Positions 17,231 through 32,586 are shown, counted from the first letter of the stretch. The stretch: 48,650 nucleotides of DNA from Nanobdellota archaeon (GCA_028867075.1 JAGWGZ010000002.1:1-48650); one strand, 5' to 3'. Numbers and translations: made by a program. The notes: generated from the letters alone by a model not told the origin.

Positions 17231-17364
17231 TGCGCCGGCCGGGAGTCGAACCCGGACCATCTGCTCTCTACTGTATTCCTGCTTGGAGAAAAACTGCATT
17301 TTTCCGCAGTGGTTTCCCCGAAACACACTGGAAGGCAGAGATTCTACCGCTAAACCACCAGCGC
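17231..17364 (-). tRNA. tRNA-Gly (anticodon UCC) with a 63-nt intron at position 37/38
   Basis: Hand fold: acceptor GCGCUGG/CCGGCGC, D arm GUUU-AGCGGUA-GAAU, anticodon stem UCUGC/GCAGA, loop CUUCCA|intron|A, T arm CCGGG-UUCGACU-CCCGG, discriminator A. Exons 17364-17329 and 17265-17231, intron 17328-17266. Confidence 0.8.
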
Positions 17365-17822: not shown

Positions 17823-17899
17823 TGCGCCCGATAGGATTTGAACCTACGACTCCCTCCTTAGGACGGAGGTACTCTGATTCCAGGCTGAGTTACGGGCGC
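17823..17899 (-). tRNA. tRNA-Arg (anticodon CCU)
   Basis: Hand fold: acceptor GCGCCCG/CGGGCGC, D stem ACUC/GAGU, anticodon stem CCUCC/GGAGG with loop GUCCUAA, T arm GUAGG-UUCAAAU-CCUAU. Confidence 0.85.
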
Positions 17900-22081: not shown

Positions 22082-22101
22082 GTCCCTTAAATAAAAATAA
22101 A

Positions 22102-22214
22102 GAAGACAGCTTAATGACTTAGCTTCTTTTCGAAACTATAACCATCAACGCAAAGAGCTTAACTTCTGGGTTCGGAATGGGACCAGGTGTTTCCCCTTTG
22201 CTATGGCCGTCTTC
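22102..22214 (-). rRNA. 5S rRNA (orphan, about 113 nt)
   Basis: The minus strand reads GAAGACGGCCAUAGCAAAGGGGAAACACCUGGUCCCAUUCCGAACCCAGAAGUUAAGCUCUUUGCGUUGAUGG...GCUGUCUUC. It has the conserved 5S loop and helix signatures, and helix I closes GAAGACGGC with GCUGUCUUC. Confidence 0.75.
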
Positions 22215-23354: not shown

Positions 23355-23743
23355 GGATCATCGACGGAACAGATGCTGTTCTTGGGAGAATCGCAAGTTA
23401 TGTTGCGAGACTGGCACTAAGAGGAGAAGAAATAAGAGTTATCAACTGTGAGAATATCCTCGTAACTGGCAACAGAAAAGTTTTCATAAGAGGCATTGAA
23501 GAAAAAAGGAGAAGAGTCGGGAGCACCCAAAAGGGGCCAAAGTATTCAAGAAAGATTGAGAGGATAGTCAAGACAACTATAAGAGGAATGCTCCCTGATT
23601 ATAGAGAGGGGCGGGGAAGGGAGGCATTCAAAAGGGTAAAATGTTATCTTGGTATTCCAAAAGAATTTGAAGGTTCTGAAATGGAGAGAATGAAAAAAAG
23701 AATGCCTAAAGTTTATAATAAAATTGGAGATATCCTTCAATGA
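23351..23743 (+). CDS. rpl13: 50S ribosomal protein uL13
   Basis: IIDGTDAVLGRIASYVA...IRGMLP. Confidence 0.9.
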   Translation: MRIIDGTDAVLGRIASYVARLALRGEEIRVINCENILVTGNRKVFIRGIEEKRRRVGSTQKGPKYSRKIERIVKTTIRGMLPDYREGRGREAFKRVKCYLGIPKEFEGSEMERMKKRMPKVYNKIGDILQ

Positions 23744-24153
23744 GCGACAAGATTGGAAGAATAATAACCTCTGGAAAAAGAAAAGCGGCAATTGCAAAAG
23801 CCACAATAAAAGAGGGCAATGGGGAGGTTTTCATCAACAATAGGGATTACAGGACTCTCCAAATATTTGACAAATTCAGAATAGAAGAGCCGCTGAGAAT
23901 CACAAAGGAGGTTGCCGGAAAAACAAACTTTGAGGTTTCAATAAAGGTTTCAGGCGGAGGGCAAAGAGGACAAATTGAGGCTTCGCGATTAGCTTTGGCA
24001 AGAGCTATCTCGGACTTTTTTAAATCAAAAGAGTTAACAGAAACTTTGGAAAATTATGATAGGAATCTCCTAATTGCAGATGTCCGGAGAAAGGAAGCGA
24101 GAAAACCCGGAGATTCTAAAGCGCGTGCACAAAGGCAGAGCTCCAAGAGATGA
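23740..24153 (+). CDS. rps9: 30S ribosomal protein uS9
   Basis: GKRKAAIAKATIKEGNG...GGGQRGQIEASRLALARA...DVRRKEARKPG. Confidence 0.9.
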   Translation: MSDKIGRIITSGKRKAAIAKATIKEGNGEVFINNRDYRTLQIFDKFRIEEPLRITKEVAGKTNFEVSIKVSGGGQRGQIEASRLALARAISDFFKSKELTETLENYDRNLLIADVRRKEARKPGDSKARAQRQSSKR

Positions 24154-24681
24154 TCATTTTATCTTCAACCTTTCCAATTTATTCTGCACGTGGTTAAACA
24201 ACGTCGAAGAGATTATTGGCTGATGAGAACCTTGGAAAACCTGATTGTTAAATTTTATTTTCCCCATATAAGTGAAGTTCTTTAAAATTTTCTTTAATCC
24301 GTTCACAGAAAGATGGTGTTTATGTGCAAGCTGCCTGAGGCTTATTTCATTATTTAGAAAATCTTCAAAGATTTCCTCAACCTCCCTGTAATTTTGGGCT
24401 GGAACGAGATTTTTCCCTTCAATTTTGTATCCAAAGGGTGTTCGAGACATAATTTTTCCATTAGATGCCTTCACCATCATCCCCTTTTTTTGCCTCTGAC
24501 CTGAATTTATAGAATATCTTTTAAAAGTTTCTAGTATCTTTCCGTCAATTTTTTCATTTATGTATTCCAAGAACTCTCTTTCATTATCTGGAGAGAAATG
24601 GTAGCAAATTTCGCACAGATCTTTTCCAAATTTTTTTCTTTTTGGTACACTGCCGCATTTAAAACAGAATCCTTCTTCCAT
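24154..24681 (-). CDS. Zn-ribbon + recombinase-domain protein lacking the resolvase catalytic domain
   Basis: N-terminus CFKCG-x14-CEICY. The C-terminus FGYKIEGKNLVP..EVEEIFEDFLNNEISLRQLA..GLKKILKNFTYMGKIKF..HQPIIS is paralogous to aa ~150-250 of the serine recombinase at 25475-26233. No YxRVS catalytic motif. Confidence 0.6.
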   Translation of the reverse strand: MEEGFCFKCGSVPKRKKFGKDLCEICYHFSPDNEREFLEYINEKIDGKILETFKRYSINSGQRQKKGMMVKASNGKIMSRTPFGYKIEGKNLVPAQNYREVEEIFEDFLNNEISLRQLAHKHHLSVNGLKKILKNFTYMGKIKFNNQVFQGSHQPIISSTLFNHVQNKLERLKIK

Positions 24682-25301
24682 TAGATCACTCCATATTTTT
24701 TAAGTTGCATCATGAATTGTCGTTTATTTTTATATAAGATGGGTTTTACCCCAATTTTCCTCGGGGCGATCAGATTCCATTTCTGATTATCCGTAAATAA
24801 TGCTTCGTGTGCAGAAACATCCAGCTTCCTTAAAGCAACTTTAAAAATTTCTGTTCCGGTTTTTCTTGAGCCAACATCGCAAGATGCGATAACCACATCA
24901 AACTTTTTGTAATATCTATTGTCTAATAATGCCTCTTTTGCGATGCACCATATGTCTGATATAATCGCAATCTTATACCCTTTCTTTTTCAGATCAAGAG
25001 CAAGATGATATAGCCCTTTATCCCGTCTGAAATTTTTTTTATAAGCTTTAAAATAAATCTCCTTTAGGGCTTTCGGGGTTATATTAAGATTCTTCGACAT
25101 TATTGCAACAACTTTCTGGCGAGGTATTGTTCCTGATATTGCGGCGGAGTATATCTCATCTATTGAGTCCATATACTGATCCAAAGACAATTTAAGTTTT
25201 TTAGCTACAAACTCATGAACCCCAATTGCAAACTCTTCCTTTTTTCCAACAGACAAAACACCCCCCAGATCAAAGATTATTGCCTTAAACCTCTTTTCCA
25301 T
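24681..25301 (-). CDS. HAD superfamily hydrolase (subfamily IA, DLG variant)
   Basis: KAIIFDLGGVLS (motif I), ISD (motif II region), and the C-terminal FTDN motif region. Confidence 0.75.
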   Translation of the reverse strand: MEKRFKAIIFDLGGVLSVGKKEEFAIGVHEFVAKKLKLSLDQYMDSIDEIYSAAISGTIPRQKVVAIMSKNLNITPKALKEIYFKAYKKNFRRDKGLYHLALDLKKKGYKIAIISDIWCIAKEALLDNRYYKKFDVVIASCDVGSRKTGTEIFKVALRKLDVSAHEALFTDNQKWNLIAPRKIGVKPILYKNKRQFMMQLKKYGVI

Positions 25302-25302
25302 A

Positions 25303-25473
25303 TTAGTTCCTGTTAATTTTGTTTAAATTATTTTTCATGAGCTCTCTCTGATTCAAGAGCATAAGTATAACTGCACCGATAAGAAACATCCAGCTAACTG
25401 CAAAAGTTAGGACAATGCATGCCAGCGCAAGTAGAGAAAAGACCACAATTCTCGGATTCTTTATTTTTATCAT
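25303..25473 (-). CDS. 56-aa membrane peptide (below the ORF-track cutoff)
   Basis: Hand translation: MIKIKNPRIVVFSLLALACIVLTFAVSWMFLIGAVILMLLNQRELMKNNLNKINRN. It exactly fills the gap between the recombinase stop and the HAD start, leaving 1-nt spacers on both sides. Confidence 0.45.
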   Translation of the reverse strand: MIKIKNPRIVVFSLLALACIVLTFAVSWMFLIGAVILMLLNQRELMKNNLNKINRN

Positions 25474-25474
25474 C

Positions 25475-26233
25475 TTATTTTTTATTTATTCTGCCTTGAA
25501 CTAATTCAAATAATTCTCTTGGTATCAGGGGTTCATGATTTCCATTTGATTCTTTTCCACTAAATTTTACTTTTCCAATATAAGTTGAATTCCTTAGTAG
25601 TTTTTTCAAACCAGTAGTGGTTAACTTATTCTTTTTTGCCAGTTTTGTCAGACTGATTTCTGAATTTAAAAATTCATTAAACAAGCTCCTCACTTCCTCA
25701 GCTTCTTTTTCATCAATCAAAAGTTGCTTATTAATCAGCCTGTAACCCCTTGGTGCTTTTGTGATAAAACCACCTTCTTTTGCCTTCCTCTCCATCCCAA
25801 ATTTTGTCCTGTCCCCAATTATGTTCCTTTCAAATTCAGCAAATGCACCAATAATCTGGAACATAAGCTTTCCGCTGGCACTGGCTGTTTCAATTTTATC
25901 CTGCAGAGAAATAAAATCAATGTTCCATTCCTTTAATCTATCAATTGTCAAAATTAAATCTTTGAGGCTTCGAGAGAATCTGTCCAGCTTGTAAATGAAA
26001 ATTGCCTGAAACTTCCTTGACTCAGCATCCCTAAGTAATTGCATCATTTCCGGCCGGTTTAAGTCTTTTGCAGATTTTCCTTCATCCCGATAAATCTTGA
26101 ATATCTCATAACCAAGTGCCCGAGCATAATTTTGCAGTGCTTCTTCCTGGGCATCTAAGGAAAACCCATGTTGGGCCTGATCTTGGGTTGAAACTCTAAT
26201 ATAAATTGCTGCTAGGGGTTTATTCGGGGTCAT
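25475..26233 (-). CDS. small serine recombinase (resolvase catalytic domain + recombinase domain)
   Basis: AAIYIRVSTQDQ (catalytic Ser), YKLDRFSRS, FAEFERNIIGDRTK, then the recombinase-domain motif NSTYIGKVKF. 252 aa, with no zinc-ribbon or coiled-coil domain. Confidence 0.85.
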   Translation of the reverse strand: MTPNKPLAAIYIRVSTQDQAQHGFSLDAQEEALQNYARALGYEIFKIYRDEGKSAKDLNRPEMMQLLRDAESRKFQAIFIYKLDRFSRSLKDLILTIDRLKEWNIDFISLQDKIETASASGKLMFQIIGAFAEFERNIIGDRTKFGMERKAKEGGFITKAPRGYRLINKQLLIDEKEAEEVRSLFNEFLNSEISLTKLAKKNKLTTTGLKKLLRNSTYIGKVKFSGKESNGNHEPLIPRELFELVQGRINKK

Positions 26234-27177
26234 TTTACTAGCTCCTGAAATTTGTCTAATCCCAAATTATCTAAATTAAGGTATTTTATCCATGCAATTT
26301 TCGCCCATCTATAAACCTCTTCTTTCTTTTCGGGGTGTTTCGAAACTAAATTAATAGACCATACTGCCCCATCTAAGAGCCTCTTTTTAGCAAATAAATA
26401 GACTGCTTTAATTTCCTCTTTATTGAGCTTGAGATATTTCTGATACTCTTTGAAAAAAATTCCGATTAAGTCTGTTCTTACTCTCCTTTCTTCTGTTAAA
26501 ACATGTCCGACAAAGACTGCAACATCAAAGGCGAGATAATTATACTGAAAATCATCCCAATCAATTATAGCCTTTAATTTGTTATCCTTAACAAGAAAGT
26601 TTGATTCGCAAATGTCCCCATGCATGACACATTTTCTTAACTTGCTTCTATCAAGCTTGTTGCATTCTTTAATTACTTTTAGAGATTCTTCTTTGAAGTC
26701 CATATTGTCTATTTTTTTGAGGCTTTCTCCTTTCATAACTTCAAAGTGTATTTTCCCTTGCCAACGGATTCCTTTTGAAGAATATTTTAAGAGGAGTTTG
26801 TCAAGAATCCCAATTTTTTCTCCCATGTCCAAGGCAATCTTGCTGTTTATCGTTTCTGTTTCTTTCCCTTCGACAAATTCCTGTATTACTACCTTCTTTT
26901 TTTTGTAAATCAGTATCCCTTTTCCTAAAGAAGTGTGAACAATTCTTGGTATTGCTACACCCCGCTCGTTTAGGAAATCAGAGAGTTTATTTTGGGTTTC
27001 AATAAACTTCATTGCGGCATGTTCAAAAATTTTCAAGATGAATTTTCCCTCTGAGGTTATCAACCTAAACACAGTATTTCCGCCCGTAAATAGATACTGG
27101 TGAGACTTATACTTCCCAATAGAATAAATTTCTAGGATATTTTCAAAATCTTTTTTCGCAAATTTGGTTAAGACCAC
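26230..27177 (-). CDS. APH/ChoK-family phosphotransferase (homoserine kinase type II-like)
   Basis: CVMHGDICESNFLV (HGDxxxxN catalytic loop) and IIDWDDF (DxD metal site). The start is GTG at 27177 per the ORF track and is uncertain. Confidence 0.7.
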   Translation of the reverse strand: MVLTKFAKKDFENILEIYSIGKYKSHQYLFTGGNTVFRLITSEGKFILKIFEHAAMKFIETQNKLSDFLNERGVAIPRIVHTSLGKGILIYKKKKVVIQEFVEGKETETINSKIALDMGEKIGILDKLLLKYSSKGIRWQGKIHFEVMKGESLKKIDNMDFKEESLKVIKECNKLDRSKLRKCVMHGDICESNFLVKDNKLKAIIDWDDFQYNYLAFDVAVFVGHVLTEERRVRTDLIGIFFKEYQKYLKLNKEEIKAVYLFAKKRLLDGAVWSINLVSKHPEKKEEVYRWAKIAWIKYLNLDNLGLDKFQELVK

Positions 27178-27231
27178 GCTTATTCCCTCTTTAAACGTAA
27201 ACTTAGGGTCAAAAACCGCAAGTCCACAGCA

Positions 27232-27249
27232 ACTTAGGGTGCCCTAAGT
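27232..27249. promoter_or_regulatory. perfect palindrome ACTTAGGG-TG-CCCTAAGT (candidate recombinase crossover site or operator)
   Basis: Read directly: 8-bp arms around a central TG. An identical AACTTAGGGT half-site lies at 27200-27209. A TATA-like tttatata (minus strand) abuts it at 27250-27257. Confidence 0.4.
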
Positions 27250-27366
27250 ATATAAATTTAATGGAAAATTCATAAATTCCCCTAATTTTTCTTAATTTTT
27301 TAGATTTGGGGCAAAGTGTGCACTAAGGTTAAGTTAGTTAAGATGAATCAGAGGATCAGAAAAGAC

Positions 27367-27687
27367 TTACACCGAGGCTAAAATATCGCAAACTCTTTGT
27401 AAGCATTCTCTTTTGATTGTTTCTGGAAAAAGGATCCAAAATTTTTCAACCAATTGTCCTTTTGAAAGAGATTGTTTCTTTGATGAAAGATATTTTATTG
27501 CTTCCTCATGATTTTGAAATCTTTGAACATATTGGGGTCCCAAAGCCGTGATTGCCCCCCTTCACAAGATAAGATCTCCAGGCACACGGGAGACTCATGG
27601 ATTATATATAACTCTGGGCCAAGAATTCCAGCCATTAGGGCAAATTGCATAAGGAGATTCTTTTAAGGCAGGACTTGGTTCAGGCAT
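27367..27687 (-). pseudogene. 107-codon frame interrupted only by two in-frame TGA codons (pseudogene or recoded gene)
   Basis: Hand translation: MPEPSPALKESPYAICPNGWNSWPRVIYNP*VSRVPGDLIL*RGAITALGPQYVQRFQNHEEAIKYLSSKKQSLSKGQLVEKFWILFPETIKRECLQRVCDILASV(TAA). The TGA codons are at 27595-27597 and 27562-27564. Confidence 0.45.
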
Positions 27688-27792
27688 ATAAAAAATAAAT
27701 CTGAATAATTTTAAAAATTATTATAATGAAAATAAAAGAGAATAAATGTTCACTAAGGTAAACTTAATTAAAATAAAAAGAAAGAAGTTAGC

Positions 27793-27972
27793 TTATCTTC
27801 TCCTTCTCTTGCCGTAGTTTCGGATCAATTTGGTTACACCAACAGCTGCTACCAAAAGTGCAAGAACCCACTGGACCCACATATCACCCCAGCTAAATCC
27901 GGGTATCCCCACCAGGCCAAGGATCATGAATACGCCAATAACGGTTATTAACCATGCAGTTACTTTTGCCAT
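27793..27972 (-). CDS. 59-aa small membrane protein (below the ORF-track cutoff)
   Basis: MAKVTAWLITVIGVFMILGLVGIPGFSWGDMWVQWVLALLVAAVGVTKLIRNYGKRRRR, preceded by a strong GGAGGTG Shine-Dalgarno 4 nt upstream of the ATG. The plus-strand ORF 27830..28015 is antisense to it. Confidence 0.55.
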   Translation of the reverse strand: MAKVTAWLITVIGVFMILGLVGIPGFSWGDMWVQWVLALLVAAVGVTKLIRNYGKRRRR

Positions 27973-28156
27973 GTCTCACCTCCTTATGTATGATGGAATT
28001 GTATTAAGGTTATAAAGTTTTCCTCTAAGATCTTTTAAGAGGGTTTAATCTGTGAATAAATGAAGCTACAAAAACAGTATTATGCAAATCAGAGGGTGTA
28101 AACTTGCCTTATTCTCCAAACGAAAGAATTCCGACGGAGAATTAAGTTCTATATTT

Positions 28157-28193
28157 ATAAACAGTTGTTTATGGGTGTTTAAACAGCCTGTTT
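28157..28193. promoter_or_regulatory. array of overlapping AAACA/TGTTT palindromes in a divergent intergenic region
   Basis: ATAAACA-GT-TGTTTAT (28157-28172), TGTTTAAACA (28176-28185) and AAACAG-C-CTGTTT (28181-28193), read directly. Confidence 0.4.
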
Positions 28194-28342
28194 GCCATAT
28201 TATTTCTTTGAATCTCCCTTTAACAAAAGAGATTTTTAATAAGAAAAAGAAATTCATCCAGATCTCAATAATTTCCCATTATTCCTCTTTTTTATATCGG
28301 TAGGAAGCAAAGATTTTTAAATTAGTTTTTATATTATTTATC

Positions 28343-28957
28343 ATGTTTAATTGGTTTTCTAAAAGAGGAGCAATAGATTCTATAAAAAAGGATACAAAGA
28401 CTGGTTTTGAGTCAGTAAAGAAAGATATAAATTCAATTAACGGATGGATAAAATATTTAGAATCTGAAAAAACAGCACATAAAAAAGATTTAGAGGATAT
28501 TCGTGATGAATTATCGACGATAAAGGAAGAGATTGCCGGAATAAAGAATATCATTTCCATGGTTGGTGAAATGAAGATTAATCCCGTGTTTAAAACAGCT
28601 AAACAGGTGTTTAATAAACAAACAGCTGTTTTCCCTGTTCAAACAGGTGTTCAAACAGGTGTTCAAACACCTAAATTAGAACAGTTTTCAATAACTGAAA
28701 GGGCAATATTATGGATCCTCTTAAACTCTGATTTGAAATTAAGCTATGATGATTTAGCTGCAATGTTGGGGAAAGAGAGATCTACAATAAGGGGCCAAAT
28801 AAATGCAATAAAACAGAAAAGTGAGGGATTAATTGAAGAAGAAATAGAAAAAAACGGTAAAAAGAGAGTATTTGTACCTGAAGAAATTAAAGAAAAGATG
28901 ATAAAAAAGGCAAAAGTGAGAATTAAAACAGATCAAAAAAATAAAAAAGAGAGATAA
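28343..28957 (+). CDS. coiled-coil / repeat-linker / C-terminal winged-helix DNA-binding protein
   Basis: N-terminal heptad-like region (FESVKKDINSINGWIKYLESEK...), linker FKTAKQVFNKQTAVFPVQTGVQTGVQT, and a C-terminal wHTH-like segment ITERAILWILLNSDLKLSYDDLAAMLGKERSTIRGQINAIKQK. Confidence 0.55.
   Translation: MFNWFSKRGAIDSIKKDTKTGFESVKKDINSINGWIKYLESEKTAHKKDLEDIRDELSTIKEEIAGIKNIISMVGEMKINPVFKTAKQVFNKQTAVFPVQTGVQTGVQTPKLEQFSITERAILWILLNSDLKLSYDDLAAMLGKERSTIRGQINAIKQKSEGLIEEEIEKNGKKRVFVPEEIKEKMIKKAKVRIKTDQKNKKER
28637..28669 (+). repeat. in-frame 12-nt tandem repeat GTTCAAACAGGT x2.75 (encodes VQTG repeats)
   Basis: Read directly. It is embedded in an 85-nt stretch (28586-28670) dense in AAACAG/CTGTTT palindromes, including the perfect AAACAGCTGTTT. 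Confidence 0.9.
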
Positions 28958-29093
28958 AAGAGTACACCAAATGACAAAAGTGAGTATTGGGGAAAGAAAA
29001 GAGAGGGGGATAAATAAGATGTAAGAATATCTAATCTTAAAAGAGAGTGTTGAAGGAGTAGTTATTCGGTGGGCGGAATAATTATTTAGGAGG

Positions 29094-29771
29094 TTATAGG
29101 TCCCTAAGCTGCAAGATTGCGTTAAGTGAGACCAAGTTTTTTAGATTTTGGGAAATAGAAAGTTGAATGTTCTTATTGTTTATTTTTGTTTTATCGACGG
29201 GAATTCCTTTTCTCATGATTCGGCCGACATAATCTCTTATAGAACTCTCGCTGAGATTCATTTTTTTGGAGAGTAACTTATAGTCGGGAATGCCCCCTTC
29301 CTCTTCAATTTGATAAATTGTGGAAAATACGAGAAATTCTTGATCTGTAAGCTCTTTAAACTTTAGGCGTATCTCCTTTTTTATGCTATCCAGAGAATTG
29401 AGAATCTCTAAGGCATTATCAAGATTTTGAGGGGAATTAGTCTTATTTATTATGTGTCTGTTTGTCTGTTTGTCTGTTTGTCTGTTTGTTGGAACCCCTT
29501 GATTTCCTATGGAGAAAGGTGAAAATTGGGGCTCTTGAGGGTTAATAGGTAAGCTTTGTGTTGGATTCTCCTGTCTGTTTGTTGGGATTAAGTGGTTCTG
29601 TGTTGGATTTTCTTGTTGAGGATTAATTCCTTCTGGAGAGGTATTTATCTCAGAAATAAGATTTTTTAGGTTCTTTATTGAATCTTTTAATGAAAAGACT
29701 TCCATTTTAAGTAGTTCTATGTCTTCCTTTACCCGCTTAAATGCTTCCTTTATTTGATCCATTAACTTCAT
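29094..29771 (-). CDS. coiled-coil / low-complexity linker / C-terminal winged-helix DNA-binding protein (architectural paralog of 28343-28957)
   Basis: N-terminus FKRVKEDIELLKMEVFSLKDSIKNLK (compare FESVKKDINS... in the paralog), a Pro/Gln/Asn/Thr linker with PTNRQ repeats, and C-terminal LTDQEFLVFSTIYQIEEEGGIPDYKLLSKKMNLSESSIRDYVGRIMRKG. Confidence 0.55.
   Translation of the reverse strand: MKLMDQIKEAFKRVKEDIELLKMEVFSLKDSIKNLKNLISEINTSPEGINPQQENPTQNHLIPTNRQENPTQSLPINPQEPQFSPFSIGNQGVPTNRQTDKQTNRHIINKTNSPQNLDNALEILNSLDSIKKEIRLKFKELTDQEFLVFSTIYQIEEEGGIPDYKLLSKKMNLSESSIRDYVGRIMRKGIPVDKTKINNKNIQLSISQNLKNLVSLNAILQLRDL
29455..29490 (-). repeat. 8-nt tandem repeat TGTCTGTT x4.5 inside a CDS (coding strand AACAGACA; unit is not a multiple of 3)
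   Basis: Read directly: four perfect units at 29455-29486 plus tgtt. Encodes TNRQTDKQTNRH. Confidence 0.9.
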
Positions 29772-29796
29772 AGAAATTGAAAGTATAAAAGATATT

Positions 29797-30069
29797 CTAT
29801 TTTAGGGTGCTATTCTTATAAGCTCCATAGGCTTCATCAGTAAGCTTCCAGCGAATCCTTTTTTTGTAGGCAATTCCTCGGGCATTTTTTGTTATTCCCA
29901 GGACCAGGCCTTTTTTCCTGAGGTTTTCAAGGATTCCTTTTATAAACTCCTCGTCCCTCACCACCTCTTTGGCCAGATGAGAAGTAAAGAAAGGTTTTGG
30001 GGAATTATAAAACAAAAAAGAAAGTATCTGCTCGGAAATTTTATCCTGTTTTTCAGAAGAAATTTTCAT
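29797..30069 (-). CDS. small winged-helix DNA-binding protein (90 aa)
   Basis: FFTSHLAKEVVRDEEFIKGILENLRKKGLV...: helix-turn-helix plus a wing-like basic hairpin. Assignment by pattern only. Confidence 0.45.
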   Translation of the reverse strand: MKISSEKQDKISEQILSFLFYNSPKPFFTSHLAKEVVRDEEFIKGILENLRKKGLVLGITKNARGIAYKKRIRWKLTDEAYGAYKNSTLK

Positions 30070-30119
30070 CTTTAAAAGAAATAGCCCGCTGGATTTTAAA
30101 AGCCTATTGTTAATCAGTT

Positions 30120-30530
30120 CTACTTGTCTTCTTTTTGTATAAATGGAAGAGGTATGTGGAGGGGGAGGTTTAGATCATCTTCAAGTTCAAGAGCTTTAAG
30201 GTTGGCTTTCCTTAGGATGATATTAAAGACGAAAATCCTGAATTCCTCTGAGAGCTTCTTATCCTTCCAGTCTTTCATCACTTCTTTCGCCATTTTGGGC
30301 TCAGCTTCAAGGACCATGTCCCCTGAAAATTCTATTTTTGCATATTCCGGATCATATTTTATAGTATACTCAAATTTTACTGATATCAATTCTTCTTTTG
30401 TTTTTATAAAGTCAGCCTTTGCGGGGATAATCTCCAGGATATTTATATTAGTATTAGCCTTTAATTCTTCAAGCTTGTTGGAGAATCTTTCAATACTTAT
30501 TTTATTAAAGCTGAATCCTATTGCTTTCAT
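30120..30530 (-). CDS. hypothetical protein, possibly SecB-like chaperone fold
   Basis: Beta-rich N-terminal half (FSFNKISIER, ISVKFEYTIKY, AKIEFSGDMVLEA), then a helix and VFNIILRKANLKALELEDDLNLPLHIPLPFI. This resembles the SecB C-terminal block CPNILFPYARE...FPQLNLAPVNF. The function is speculative. Confidence 0.3.
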   Translation of the reverse strand: MKAIGFSFNKISIERFSNKLEELKANTNINILEIIPAKADFIKTKEELISVKFEYTIKYDPEYAKIEFSGDMVLEAEPKMAKEVMKDWKDKKLSEEFRIFVFNIILRKANLKALELEDDLNLPLHIPLPFIQKEDK

Positions 30531-30577
30531 AATGTCTTATCTCTAATCGGTTTTTTAAAGGTTTGGTTGAGCAGAAA

Positions 30578-30835
30578 TTAAACAAGATCTTCCTCAGATA
30601 CAATGACGAAGTCCCCTATTGCTATTATAGAATTATACGGGACTAAAAGCTCATTTGTGCTTGTTCTTTCAAGGTTAAGGTTCCTTGTATATGGGGTGGA
30701 ATCACGAACGACAATACTAATCAATTCTCCGGATCTGGTTTCAAAAGTAATATCTTTTACATAACCAAGCCTTTTACCCTCTTTTGTCACAATCATCTTC
30801 CCGACAATTGCACTGAACGGATTTTTTTCCTGCAT
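30578..30835 (-). CDS. PRC-barrel domain protein
   Basis: IVGKMIVTKEGKRLGYVKDITFETRSGELISIVV...LVPYNSIIAIGDFVIV is a typical archaeal stand-alone PRC barrel. Confidence 0.7.
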   Translation of the reverse strand: MQEKNPFSAIVGKMIVTKEGKRLGYVKDITFETRSGELISIVVRDSTPYTRNLNLERTSTNELLVPYNSIIAIGDFVIVSEEDLV

Positions 30836-31006
30836 GATGAAATTAGAGGGAAATGATATATAAACTTTTCTGTGAGAGAATATAATATCTAGAGTTTAAC
30901 TTTTGATTGCCATAAATTTTACAGACAAGATTCAAAATATATTTTAGAACATAACTATTCTTACAATCCTTACAATCAAAAGTTAGAAAGGCTACTTGTA
31001 ACAAGC

Positions 31007-31033
31007 CTCCCACCCCTTTATTTCTAATAGAAC
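31007..31033 (-). repeat. ORB-like element (inverted orientation)
   Basis: The minus strand reads GTTCTATTAGAAATAAAGGGGTGGGAG: a core similar to the other two copies, plus a G-rich string. Confidence 0.45.
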
Positions 31034-31223
31034 AATTTAAAAAGAAATTTTGGGTTTTGTTTTTATTATTTTTATTTAAAAAAATATGTATAGTATAGTA
31101 TATACTTTATCTTCATCTTTATCTTTATTTTTACTCAAAAAATATTGATGCACTAGTCCAATAAAATTCTCTTCTTAAAATGCTTTAAGATTTTATCTGG
31201 CGAAGATTCATAATCAGAAATAG

Positions 31224-31245
31224 AACTCCATAAGAAATTGAGGTG
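31224..31245 (+). repeat. ORB-like element
   Basis: AACTCCATAAGAAATTGAGGTG. Confidence 0.45.
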
Positions 31246-31321
31246 TTTTTCTTTTTCAGTAGTTATAATTGTTTATATAATATTATGTTACTTCACGAAT
31301 ATAAATTTAATAACTAAAAAT

Positions 31322-31350
31322 GTTCCATAGGAAACAAACGTGTGGGTGTG
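31322..31350 (+). repeat. ORB-like element (best match)
   Basis: GTTCCATAGGAAACAAACGTGTGGGTGTG. Compare the archaeal ORB core TTCCAnnGGAAAC followed by a G-string. Confidence 0.55.
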
Positions 31351-31359
31351 AAAGATAAA

Positions 31360-32586
31360 ATGGGGTTGGAGCTTGACAGTATTTTTGAATCATTTGATAA
31401 GAATACTATCTTCAAAGATAAGACTTTTCTTCAGATAAATCATCAACCTTCTGAGATTCCCCATAGAGATAATCAGATAAAACAGATAGCTTCTATACTT
31501 GCGCCTGTTTTAAGAGGGGAAAAAAGCAGTAATCTTTTTCTTTATGGAAAAACCGGAACAGGAAAGACTCTTTCTATACAGTATGTTCGTGATGAACTTT
31601 TGAAGAGAGCAATAGGAAACACTAATTTCAAGCTAAGGATAGAGTACCTTAACTGCAAATTAAGGAAGATCTCAGATACAGAATACAGGATATTGGCGGA
31701 AATGATAAAAAAACTAGGCGGAGAGATTCCAGATACCGGTCTTCCCACAGAAGCTGTTTATAATAAATTCATAAAAATAATCGATTCTGAAAAACAACTG
31801 ATTGTTCTCATTCTTGACGAGATTGACCAGGCAGTCAAGAAGATATCAAGCGATTTTCTTTATAACCTTACCAGACTTAACTCTGAACTCTCCAAGACGC
31901 AGATTTGCATTGTCGGAATAAGCAACAATCTCACTTTCCTGGATGAACTTGATCCGCGTGTAAGAAGTTCGCTTTCAGAAGAAGAAGTCGTTTTCCCCCC
32001 TTATAATGCATTGCAGCTGCAGGATATTCTGAAAAAGAGGGCACAATCCGCATTCAAGGAAAATGTTCTCCAGGAAGGGGTCATTGCAAAGTGCGCTGCA
32101 TTTGCAGCGCGGGAGCACGGGGATGCGAGAAGGGCGCTTGATTTACTGAGGGTTGCGGGAGAGCTTGCAGAAAGGGAGAATTCCGGAAAAATTCTGCTTA
32201 AGCATATAGATGAAGCAAATAACAAGATTGAAAAGGACAAAATAATCGATGTCATCTCTTCAGAACCAAAACAATTTCAATATGTTCTGCATTCAATAAT
32301 TTATCTTTCAGAGCAAAGAAATAAAGATAAACAACACCACTCCGAACCAATCTTTACTGGAGATGTCTACAATTATTACAAGGAAAACATAAAAACTAAA
32401 ATGGAAATCCTGACTCAGAGGAGAGTGAGCGATATCATCCAGGAGTTTGACATGCTTGGGATTATTAACGTAAGAGTCATCTCAAAAGGGCGTGGTGGGA
32501 GAATGAGGGAGATAAAACTTGCAATATCTAATGATATCATAGAAAAAGCCAAGGAGATAATTAAGGATTCACTGCAATTCTTGTGA
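31360..32586 (+). CDS. cdc6: Orc1/Cdc6 replication initiator
   Basis: LFLYGKTGTGKT (Walker A), LILDEID (Walker B), GDARRALDLLR (sensor 2) and a C-terminal winged helix. I prefer the ATG at 31360 because the GTG at 31342 lies inside the ORB-like element. Confidence 0.9.
   Translation: MGLELDSIFESFDKNTIFKDKTFLQINHQPSEIPHRDNQIKQIASILAPVLRGEKSSNLFLYGKTGTGKTLSIQYVRDELLKRAIGNTNFKLRIEYLNCKLRKISDTEYRILAEMIKKLGGEIPDTGLPTEAVYNKFIKIIDSEKQLIVLILDEIDQAVKKISSDFLYNLTRLNSELSKTQICIVGISNNLTFLDELDPRVRSSLSEEEVVFPPYNALQLQDILKKRAQSAFKENVLQEGVIAKCAAFAAREHGDARRALDLLRVAGELAERENSGKILLKHIDEANNKIEKDKIIDVISSEPKQFQYVLHSIIYLSEQRNKDKQHHSEPIFTGDVYNYYKENIKTKMEILTQRRVSDIIQEFDMLGIINVRVISKGRGGRMREIKLAISNDIIEKAKEIIKDSLQFL

Follow-up and report, generated by a model that had tools for sequence, protein, structure and literature searches.

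The 107-codon reading frame that runs on the minus strand from position 27687 to 27367 is most probably a frameshift pseudogene of a small mobile-element gene, carrying two compensating indels and involving no recoding of TGA; we put the probability of this at about 0.9. The match to intact relatives changes frame at two points in the locus, and the two TGA triplets that interrupt the frame fall in the segment between the switches. Positions are those of the window, i.e. the whole 48,650-nt stretch of DNA that was analysed, which is one complete contig of a 575 kb assembly (26 contigs, 88.7% complete, 39.7% G+C). The host assembly is that of a very small archaeal genome, with intron-bearing tRNAs and genes for Cdc6/Orc1, PolD DP1/DP2, L18e and an Rpb4-like protein. 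Judging by its size, the genome may be DPANN-like. The stretch occurs in 14 sequencing runs from mine-drainage, mine-tailings, soil and wastewater metagenomes, taken from four studies and none recorded as RNA.

The frame, termed frame A here, runs from ATG to TAA within a 615-nt stretch (27178-27792) that has no long ORF. It contains just two stops internally, both TGA, one as codon 31 (27597-27595) and the other as codon 42 (27564-27562), spaced by 33 nt, and the remaining 104 codons are sense. In this our reading of the minus strand agrees with the initial annotation, which had drawn attention to a 107-codon frame broken by two TGA codons only.

The locus comprises three segments on the minus strand that are separated by two breaks. 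The head (27607..27687) contains the ATG and codons 1-27, and its ancestral frame is frame A; 25 of the 27 residues are identical to residues 1-27 of P0002, a 62-aa protein called on a contig of a sister strain (run X2). At break 1 (27603..27606) the window allele has a 4-nt TATA insertion within the TA run gttataTATAatcc that is not present in the contigs of runs X2 and X8. The middle (27534..27602) is 23 codons long and reads IHESPVCLEILSCEGGQSRLWDP in its true frame, which the profile score of a composite translation (see below) identifies as A+1, i.e. the frame of a 51-aa ORF at 27495..27650. Break 2 (27531..27537) corresponds to one base lost within ccccaat, as judged by collinearity with the family, and is common to all alleles seen. 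The tail (27367..27531) is again in frame A, reading YVQRF...ILASV followed by the TAA stop (27367-27369), and is assigned by its homology to P0006, an intact relative. From its ATG the window allele can encode 30 residues only.

Both TGA triplets arise by reading the middle out of its ancestral frame; in frame A the middle contains no type of stop but TGA, which occurs twice. In the true frame the first (27595..27597) spans caT GAg, encoding His-Glu, and the second (27562..27564) spans tgT GAa, encoding Cys-Glu. Each TGA is thus the last T of one codon joined to the GA of the Glu codon that follows. P0002 retains HE at the first site and SCEG at the second, and the Glu at the second site is the conserved Glu of the YSEGQ motif of the family. 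Tryptophan, which had been proposed for both positions by eye, is therefore not the residue carried there by homologues.

The directions of the two indels are judged from comparison with distant family members, in place of an intact outgroup allele, and are to be taken as probable. In the TATA-less alleles of X2 and X8 the sequence RVIIHES is collinear with GKIVEES of the family, and P0002 reads ...GVIIHES... across the site. Because of this collinearity TATA would be an insertion in the present lineage, plausibly generated by slippage in the TA run. At break 2 the family has W-D-P-x-Y-V. In the window LWDP is in frame +1 and YVQRF is in frame A, and the single residue x of the family is represented by just two bases (aa). 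Since two bases stand where one family codon is expected, one base appears to have been lost, which may have been an A or one of the run of Cs. A gain of four bases and a loss of one sum to three (+4 -1 = +3), and the head and tail consequently share frame A.

P0002 was the sole true match, from three candidates, when frame A read with TGA as tryptophan (P0001) was used in a word-indexed search of a collection of 5.8 billion proteins. It follows frame A for residues 1-27 and then the +1 frame of the window to its own TAA. In other collections P0001 found little. It matched no Pfam family, and in PHROGs it gave two matches only, with E values of 0.24 and 0.38. The best non-self match in a protein search of 61 related genomes had an E value of 0.026, i.e. 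nothing significant, and no related locus was found in viral contigs or in JGI metagenome contigs, where 2 and 138 pattern matches respectively failed tblastn.

Intact relatives exist as single ORFs: P0006 (121 aa), P0007 (146 aa), P0003 (about 147-152 aa) and P0004 (101 aa). Searching 401 genomes of the order at DNA level led to same-genus loci in which an HTH gene and a 58/59-aa membrane ORF are followed by variable cargo, and in one of these genomes (G003) P0003 occupies the same place in the element as the window locus, after the membrane ORF. P0003 is 34% identical to the frame-A tail over 35 aa, and P0004 is related to P0003. P0006 was found by an exhaustive HMMER search with P0001, and is 44% identical to the tail over 55 aa (library E 4.4e-5, pairwise E 1e-15); P0007 is a full-length relative of P0006. 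A further candidate, P0005 (2337 aa, library E 1.7e-6), was judged spurious, being a repetitive protein with many weak matches of 29-39 aa. A profile made from three sequences (A1) found matches with E ≤ 0.01 in 25 of these 401 genomes, and matched the window tail (27367-27540) with an E value of 1.7e-7. Stops counted within the A1 matches of other members include natural terminal ones, as in the match of the window itself, and were not taken as signs of decay elsewhere.

From these an alignment and HMM of 21 members were constructed, consisting of 19 ORFs (loci L025-L044) together with P0004 and P0006. The consensus is approximately IEKPWAVYGW..G.WGIGKIV.ES..S..I.YSEGQ.YP...WD.K.VKRFD.P.KAI.YFL...Y.K.E.I..FL..FPSEK..LE. 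All six of the members tested against Pfam were without a match above cut-off. Members are sometimes arranged in tandem, with two copies in L026. The AlphaFold2 model of P0004, made with an alignment of 10 sequences, is of high confidence (pLDDT 89.5, pTM 0.81) and has five strands (residues 10-55) followed by three helices (58-99), so that the fold of the family is predicted to be a five-stranded SH3-like barrel plus three helices. A Foldseek search of PDB with this model gave no match at E ≤ 0.001. Weak partial matches were to SH3-like barrels, i.e. retroviral integrase C-terminal domains, NusG/KOW domains and ribosomal proteins of the L14e/L27e type. A role in nucleic acid binding would be only a guess based on the model.

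The change of frame can be seen directly by comparison with the closest relatives. For P0006 and P0007 the sequence is ...RYSEGQLFPLQLWDPHYV(K/T)RF...; its counterparts in the window are ...ILSCEGGQSRLWDPNMFKDF in the +1 frame and ...LGPQYVQRF in frame A. From this comparison the family sequence corresponds to the +1 frame as far as WDP, and to frame A from YV onwards. LWDP in the middle is an exact match to both P0006 and P0007.

This was put on a quantitative basis using a composite translation, consisting of the head (27687-27607, frame A), X, the middle (27602-27534, frame +1), X and the tail (27531-27370, frame A). The composite scores 41.7 bits against the 21-member HMM as a single domain covering positions 9-95 of the 114 in the profile. 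Frame A alone scores 26.1 bits and aligns at profile positions 49-95 only, and the +1 and +2 frames alone score 14.4 and -1.2 bits; the profile gives no alignment to frame A across codons 28-52. With the head and tail retained and the middle varied, the score is 24.2 bits with frame A, 24.6 bits with frame C and 24.5 bits with no middle at all, compared with 41.7 bits for the +1 frame. The +1 middle thus adds 17 bits. None of 500 shuffled versions of it reached the observed score (mean 25.7, sd 2.2, maximum 35.7). The head contributes little (approximately 2.5 bits), and 10 of 500 head shuffles reached the observed composite score. In Smith-Waterman alignment with P0007 the composite aligned over residues 1-104 with a score of 145, whereas frame A scored 121 and aligned from residue 51 only.

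Allelic variation at the locus was analysed by comparing Logan contigs from four runs (X1, X2, X7 and X8) across 26900-28100. Contigs of X1, which may be the source sample, and of X7 are the same as the window across the ORF (0 differences) and contain TATA. X2 and X8 come from two other studies. In the X2 contig (1445 nt), from which P0002 originates, there are 15 substitutions, the 4 nt at 27603 are absent and a T is added behind 27708. Of the 26 substitutions in the X8 contig (60.7 kb) 24 are listed, and this contig shares the 4-nt deletion and the T insertion with X2. In addition it has 1-nt deletions at 27630 and 27348, and a change of CAA to TAA at frame-A codon 72. Both TGA triplets are unchanged in the X2 allele, and a TGG allele was seen at neither site among the differences available (all of those for X2, 24 of 26 for X8). 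No indel was reported at break 2 in any of the contigs compared; P0002 continues in frame +1 to its TAA.

The substitutions in these alleles are concentrated in the locus. There are 10 in X2 and 16 in X8 within 27367-27687, against 2 in each within the flank at 27793-28100 (308 nt, mostly small ORFs). The divergence of the pseudogene is thus 3-5% compared with 0.65% in the flanking genes, and the rate of change in the stretch exceeds that in its coding neighbours some five- to eightfold, matching that of the intergenic flanks. Synonymous changes in frame A make up 3 of 10 (X2) and 6 of 16 (X8), compared with a fraction of 0.33 expected for random transitions, and the other frames do no better. 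The substitutions in the pseudogene therefore look neutral, at counts that are small, and weak residual constraint on the locus is compatible with counts of this size. The initial annotation had described the inactivation as recent; it is not very recent, as the 1-nt loss is common to alleles that differ at 3-5% of the sites of the gene.

We note that a third haplotype, approximately 9-10% divergent, is present in the same communities. It covers 27235-27494 in one X1 contig (record 4; 24 differences and 5 gap letters) and 27465-27551 in an X7 contig (record 13; 9 differences and no gap).

The initial annotation had also considered the locus to be a pseudogene, but formed by two TGG-to-TGA changes in a gene for which frame A was true throughout. 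The frame switch and the indels support the first part of that reading; the second is not supported, because the middle aligns in the +1 frame. The 104 open sense codons are in keeping with two point mutations, and tryptophan looks plausible by eye at both sites in a family that has aromatic residues in this region. However, the profile score gains nothing from the frame-A middle but 17 bits from the +1 middle, the sister alleles go from the head straight into the +1 frame, and no TGG allele is found among the differences listed, so we regard this mechanism as very improbable. A further possibility is that the TGA codons might be recoded as selenocysteine, as Trp or Gly, or by read-through, or that the gene came from a donor reading TGA as sense. 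That both internal stops are TGA in a frame that is otherwise open, and that the gene is within a mobile element, would fit such a reading, but TGA is a common stop in this host, as the initial annotation had stated; 105 of 341 ORFs of at least 200 aa terminate with it, and the other genes of the element are open under table 11. In the 88.7% complete assembly there were no matches to SepSecS (PF05889) or selD (TIGR00476), and the four matches to selB (TIGR00475) were all below cut-off (best 158.8 against 242.25 bits), corresponding to general translation GTPases. ARAGORN found no UCA anticodon among 25 tRNAs (27 when introns were allowed) in the same assembly, and the anticodon of tRNA-Trp is CCA. 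Given that degree of completeness the Sec genes and a suppressor tRNA are best described as not found, rather than as proven to be absent. Moreover the TGA codons fall in a segment that has its homology in another frame, and the sister alleles contain frameshifts and a TAA. Recoding is consequently an extremely unlikely explanation. The same weight is appropriate for programmed frameshifting, in which the ribosome would shift by +1 close to the TA run, and by -1 at the C run, to give the full-length protein. Both breaks are in short repetitive sequences (tatata and cccc), and tRNA-Pro could conceivably slip by -1 on CCCC. Yet members of the family are single uninterrupted ORFs, the first of the two sites lacks conservation since TATA is absent from the sister alleles, neither break has an X XXY YYZ heptamer, X8 has an additional 1-nt deletion and a TAA in the tail, and the substitutions look neutral.

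A chance open frame in AT-rich non-coding DNA that was never a gene has to be weighed as well, since the openness of the frame is weak evidence on its own. In first-order Markov simulations of the same composition (n = 5000, 615 nt) a frame of 106 codons or more, beginning with ATG and free of stops other than TGA, was obtained in 2.7% of cases, and mononucleotide shuffles of the 615-nt stretch gave a comparable frame in 1.8%; if any one stop codon may be ignored such a frame is found in 19% of the simulated gaps. The frame had been called improbable for non-coding DNA; its openness is just mildly unusual, and it is the homology that shows the stretch to exceed chance. The log-odds score for codon usage in frame A is 13.1, lying between the means for genes (29.8, sd 11.3) and for off-frame readings (1.7, sd 10.1), and the score does not discriminate, since plus-strand frame 2 scores 20.4 despite having five stops. 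Against a chance origin there is significant homology to a family that is found at the same place of the element in relatives, and the likelihood of such an origin is practically negligible. Lastly, fragments of the gene might still function, either as a 58-aa ORF containing the tail (TTG, 27543..27367) or as the 62-aa head-plus-barrel product of the sister strain. Conservation is highest in the tail, where third positions account for four of the six substitutions in X8, and P0002 was called as a gene. On the other side, X8 has its TAA at codon 72 within the tail ORF and a 1-nt deletion within the head, the barrel would be left without its helical partner, and no such architecture was found in the family among the length classes searched. 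We consider functional fragments to be very unlikely, and the pieces would probably be non-functional. Nor is there much to commend a non-neutral TATA insertion, whereby leaky TGA codons would permit translation of a full-length protein that has the start of the barrel and the helical tail joined by a scrambled 25-residue linker. If true this would be a frameshifted gene rescued by a compensating indel together with stop-codon read-through, but we think that exceedingly improbable.

The frameshift pseudogene may have arisen as follows. The ancestor would have been a gene of approximately 105 codons, carried as cargo by an integrative element in small-genome archaea. In the first event ccccaat (27531-27537) probably lost one base; this would have thrown the helical tail out of frame, leaving a product truncated past the barrel, i.e. 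the state seen in X2 with its 62-aa P0002. Later, in the lineage of the present genome, TATA would have been inserted into the TA run at 27603-27606, and X8 would have independently acquired its 1-nt deletion and TAA. Restoration of phase requires no selection, since about one in three second indels would suffice.

The locus lies within a block of mobile genes of about 7 kb (approximately 24154-31300), situated between rpS9 (23740-24153) and cdc6 (31342-32586), and we read this as an integrated mobile element. The downstream neighbour of the pseudogene is a gene for an APH-type phosphotransferase (kinase) on the minus strand (26230..27177; Pfam PF01636, E 3.1e-22), and upstream there is a 59-aa membrane-like ORF (27793..27972, minus strand) that is conserved within the genus at the same place of the element. 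It has 70% DNA identity to G003, G011 and G002, with homologues of 58-59 aa in L014, L015 and L018. The block also contains a serine recombinase of 252 aa (25475-26233), a 175-aa ORF with a match to the Recombinase domain that abuts rpS9 (24154-24681), two HTH proteins (28343-28957 and 29094-29771), a HAD hydrolase and small membrane ORFs. In the same-genus genome G011 the recombinase follows directly after the membrane ORF, placing the pseudogene and kinase in a position of variable cargo.

At gathering threshold Rfam found 5S rRNA and tRNAs only in the window. The 5S rRNA gene (22101-22214) adjoins tRNA-Leu(aag). Two of the tRNAs (17231-17364 and 17823-17899) were missed by ARAGORN in default mode; one is 134 nt long and presumably contains an intron. 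Relaxing the threshold to E ≤ 10 for 27100-27850 brought in six weak matches, each far below its gathering score, to eukaryotic snoRNA, miRNA and viral families and none to a SECIS family; they were judged to be due to chance.

The pseudogene is flanked by direct repeats on the minus strand, an upstream copy (27744..27777) that contains the intergenic motif TAAGTTTACCTTAGTGAAC of the element, and a downstream copy TAACTTAACCTTAGTGCAC (27314..27347). Repeats of about 28 bp had been reported in the initial annotation; they are real and slightly longer, being 34 nt in length, 79% identical and spaced by 430, with only these two copies in the window at up to 3 mismatches. In many related loci, copies of the motif TAAGnTnACCTTAGTG(C/A)AC stand on the coding strand where one gene of the element gives way to the next, for example three in L028 and four in L038. 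The repeats are thus copies of a motif that punctuates the intergenic spaces, the two of them delimiting one gene cassette, and for the same reason an interpretation as a target-site duplication or as att sites was rejected. Often (loci L014-L040) the motif follows closely on a stop codon, or is no more than about 25 nt away from the start that comes next.

A second conserved sequence element is found upstream of the kinase gene (27183..27268, minus strand), resembling a promoter or operator and 78-83% identical over approximately 80 nt in eight loci of other genomes. It comprises, in order, TTTATATA, the palindrome ACTTAGGGCACCCTAAGT, approximately 22 variable nucleotides, the half-site CCCTAAGTTTAC, AAAGAGG and a GTG start. 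The palindrome is 8+8, i.e. ACTTAGGG(CA/TG)CCCTAAGT, and the consensus of the second half-site is CCCTAAGTTyAC. Its centre of 2 nt is too short to serve as the loop of an RNA hairpin. The palindrome and the intergenic motif have a CTTAG/CTAAG core in common. With up to 2 mismatches allowed, the 25-nt core of the module (27232-27256) gave 43 matches in 42 of the 401 genomes of the order, representing 27 of 153 genera, and occurred once per genome except in G243, which has two; the reversed core gave no matches in the same 401 genomes. The genes downstream of the module vary: in the window it is the kinase that follows, whereas L016, L019 and L023 have a serine recombinase. The strain contigs lose synteny at the module, X8 to the left of 27234 and the X1 and X7 copies to the left of 27189. 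The module looks like a repressor operator on a promoter of the integrative element.

The locus conforms to what is known for frameshift pseudogenes carrying a compensating indel. The alignment with intact relatives changes frame at two points. The indels, situated in short runs of TA and of C/A, have lengths that three does not divide, and they vary between strains; the substitutions look neutral and accumulate faster than in neighbouring genes. We see no essential difference from this class, the curiosity being that the phase has been restored and that the 25 misread codons have TGA as their sole stop. The likeness to selenoprotein genes and other TGA-recoded genes is superficial, being limited to in-frame TGA codons in an otherwise open frame; here by contrast the TGA codons are outside the ancestral frame, and the Sec machinery and a corresponding tRNA were not found. 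The relationship to the unnamed element family of proteins of about 100-150 aa is that of a member, except that the copy in the window is broken twice where the members are uninterrupted ORFs.

A pair of compensating frameshifts can create a long frame that TGA alone interrupts, which is then a false-positive pattern in the search for recoding. As compensating frameshifts mimic recoding in this way, homology in the other frames should be checked before a reading as selenocysteine or as a change in the genetic code is entertained. The locus itself is unremarkable, a decayed gene among the cargo of a mobile element. The protein family, the 25-nt TATA-plus-palindrome sequence and the intergenic motif all belong to one integrative element of small-genome archaea, apparently undescribed, and these may outweigh the finding made at the pseudogene.
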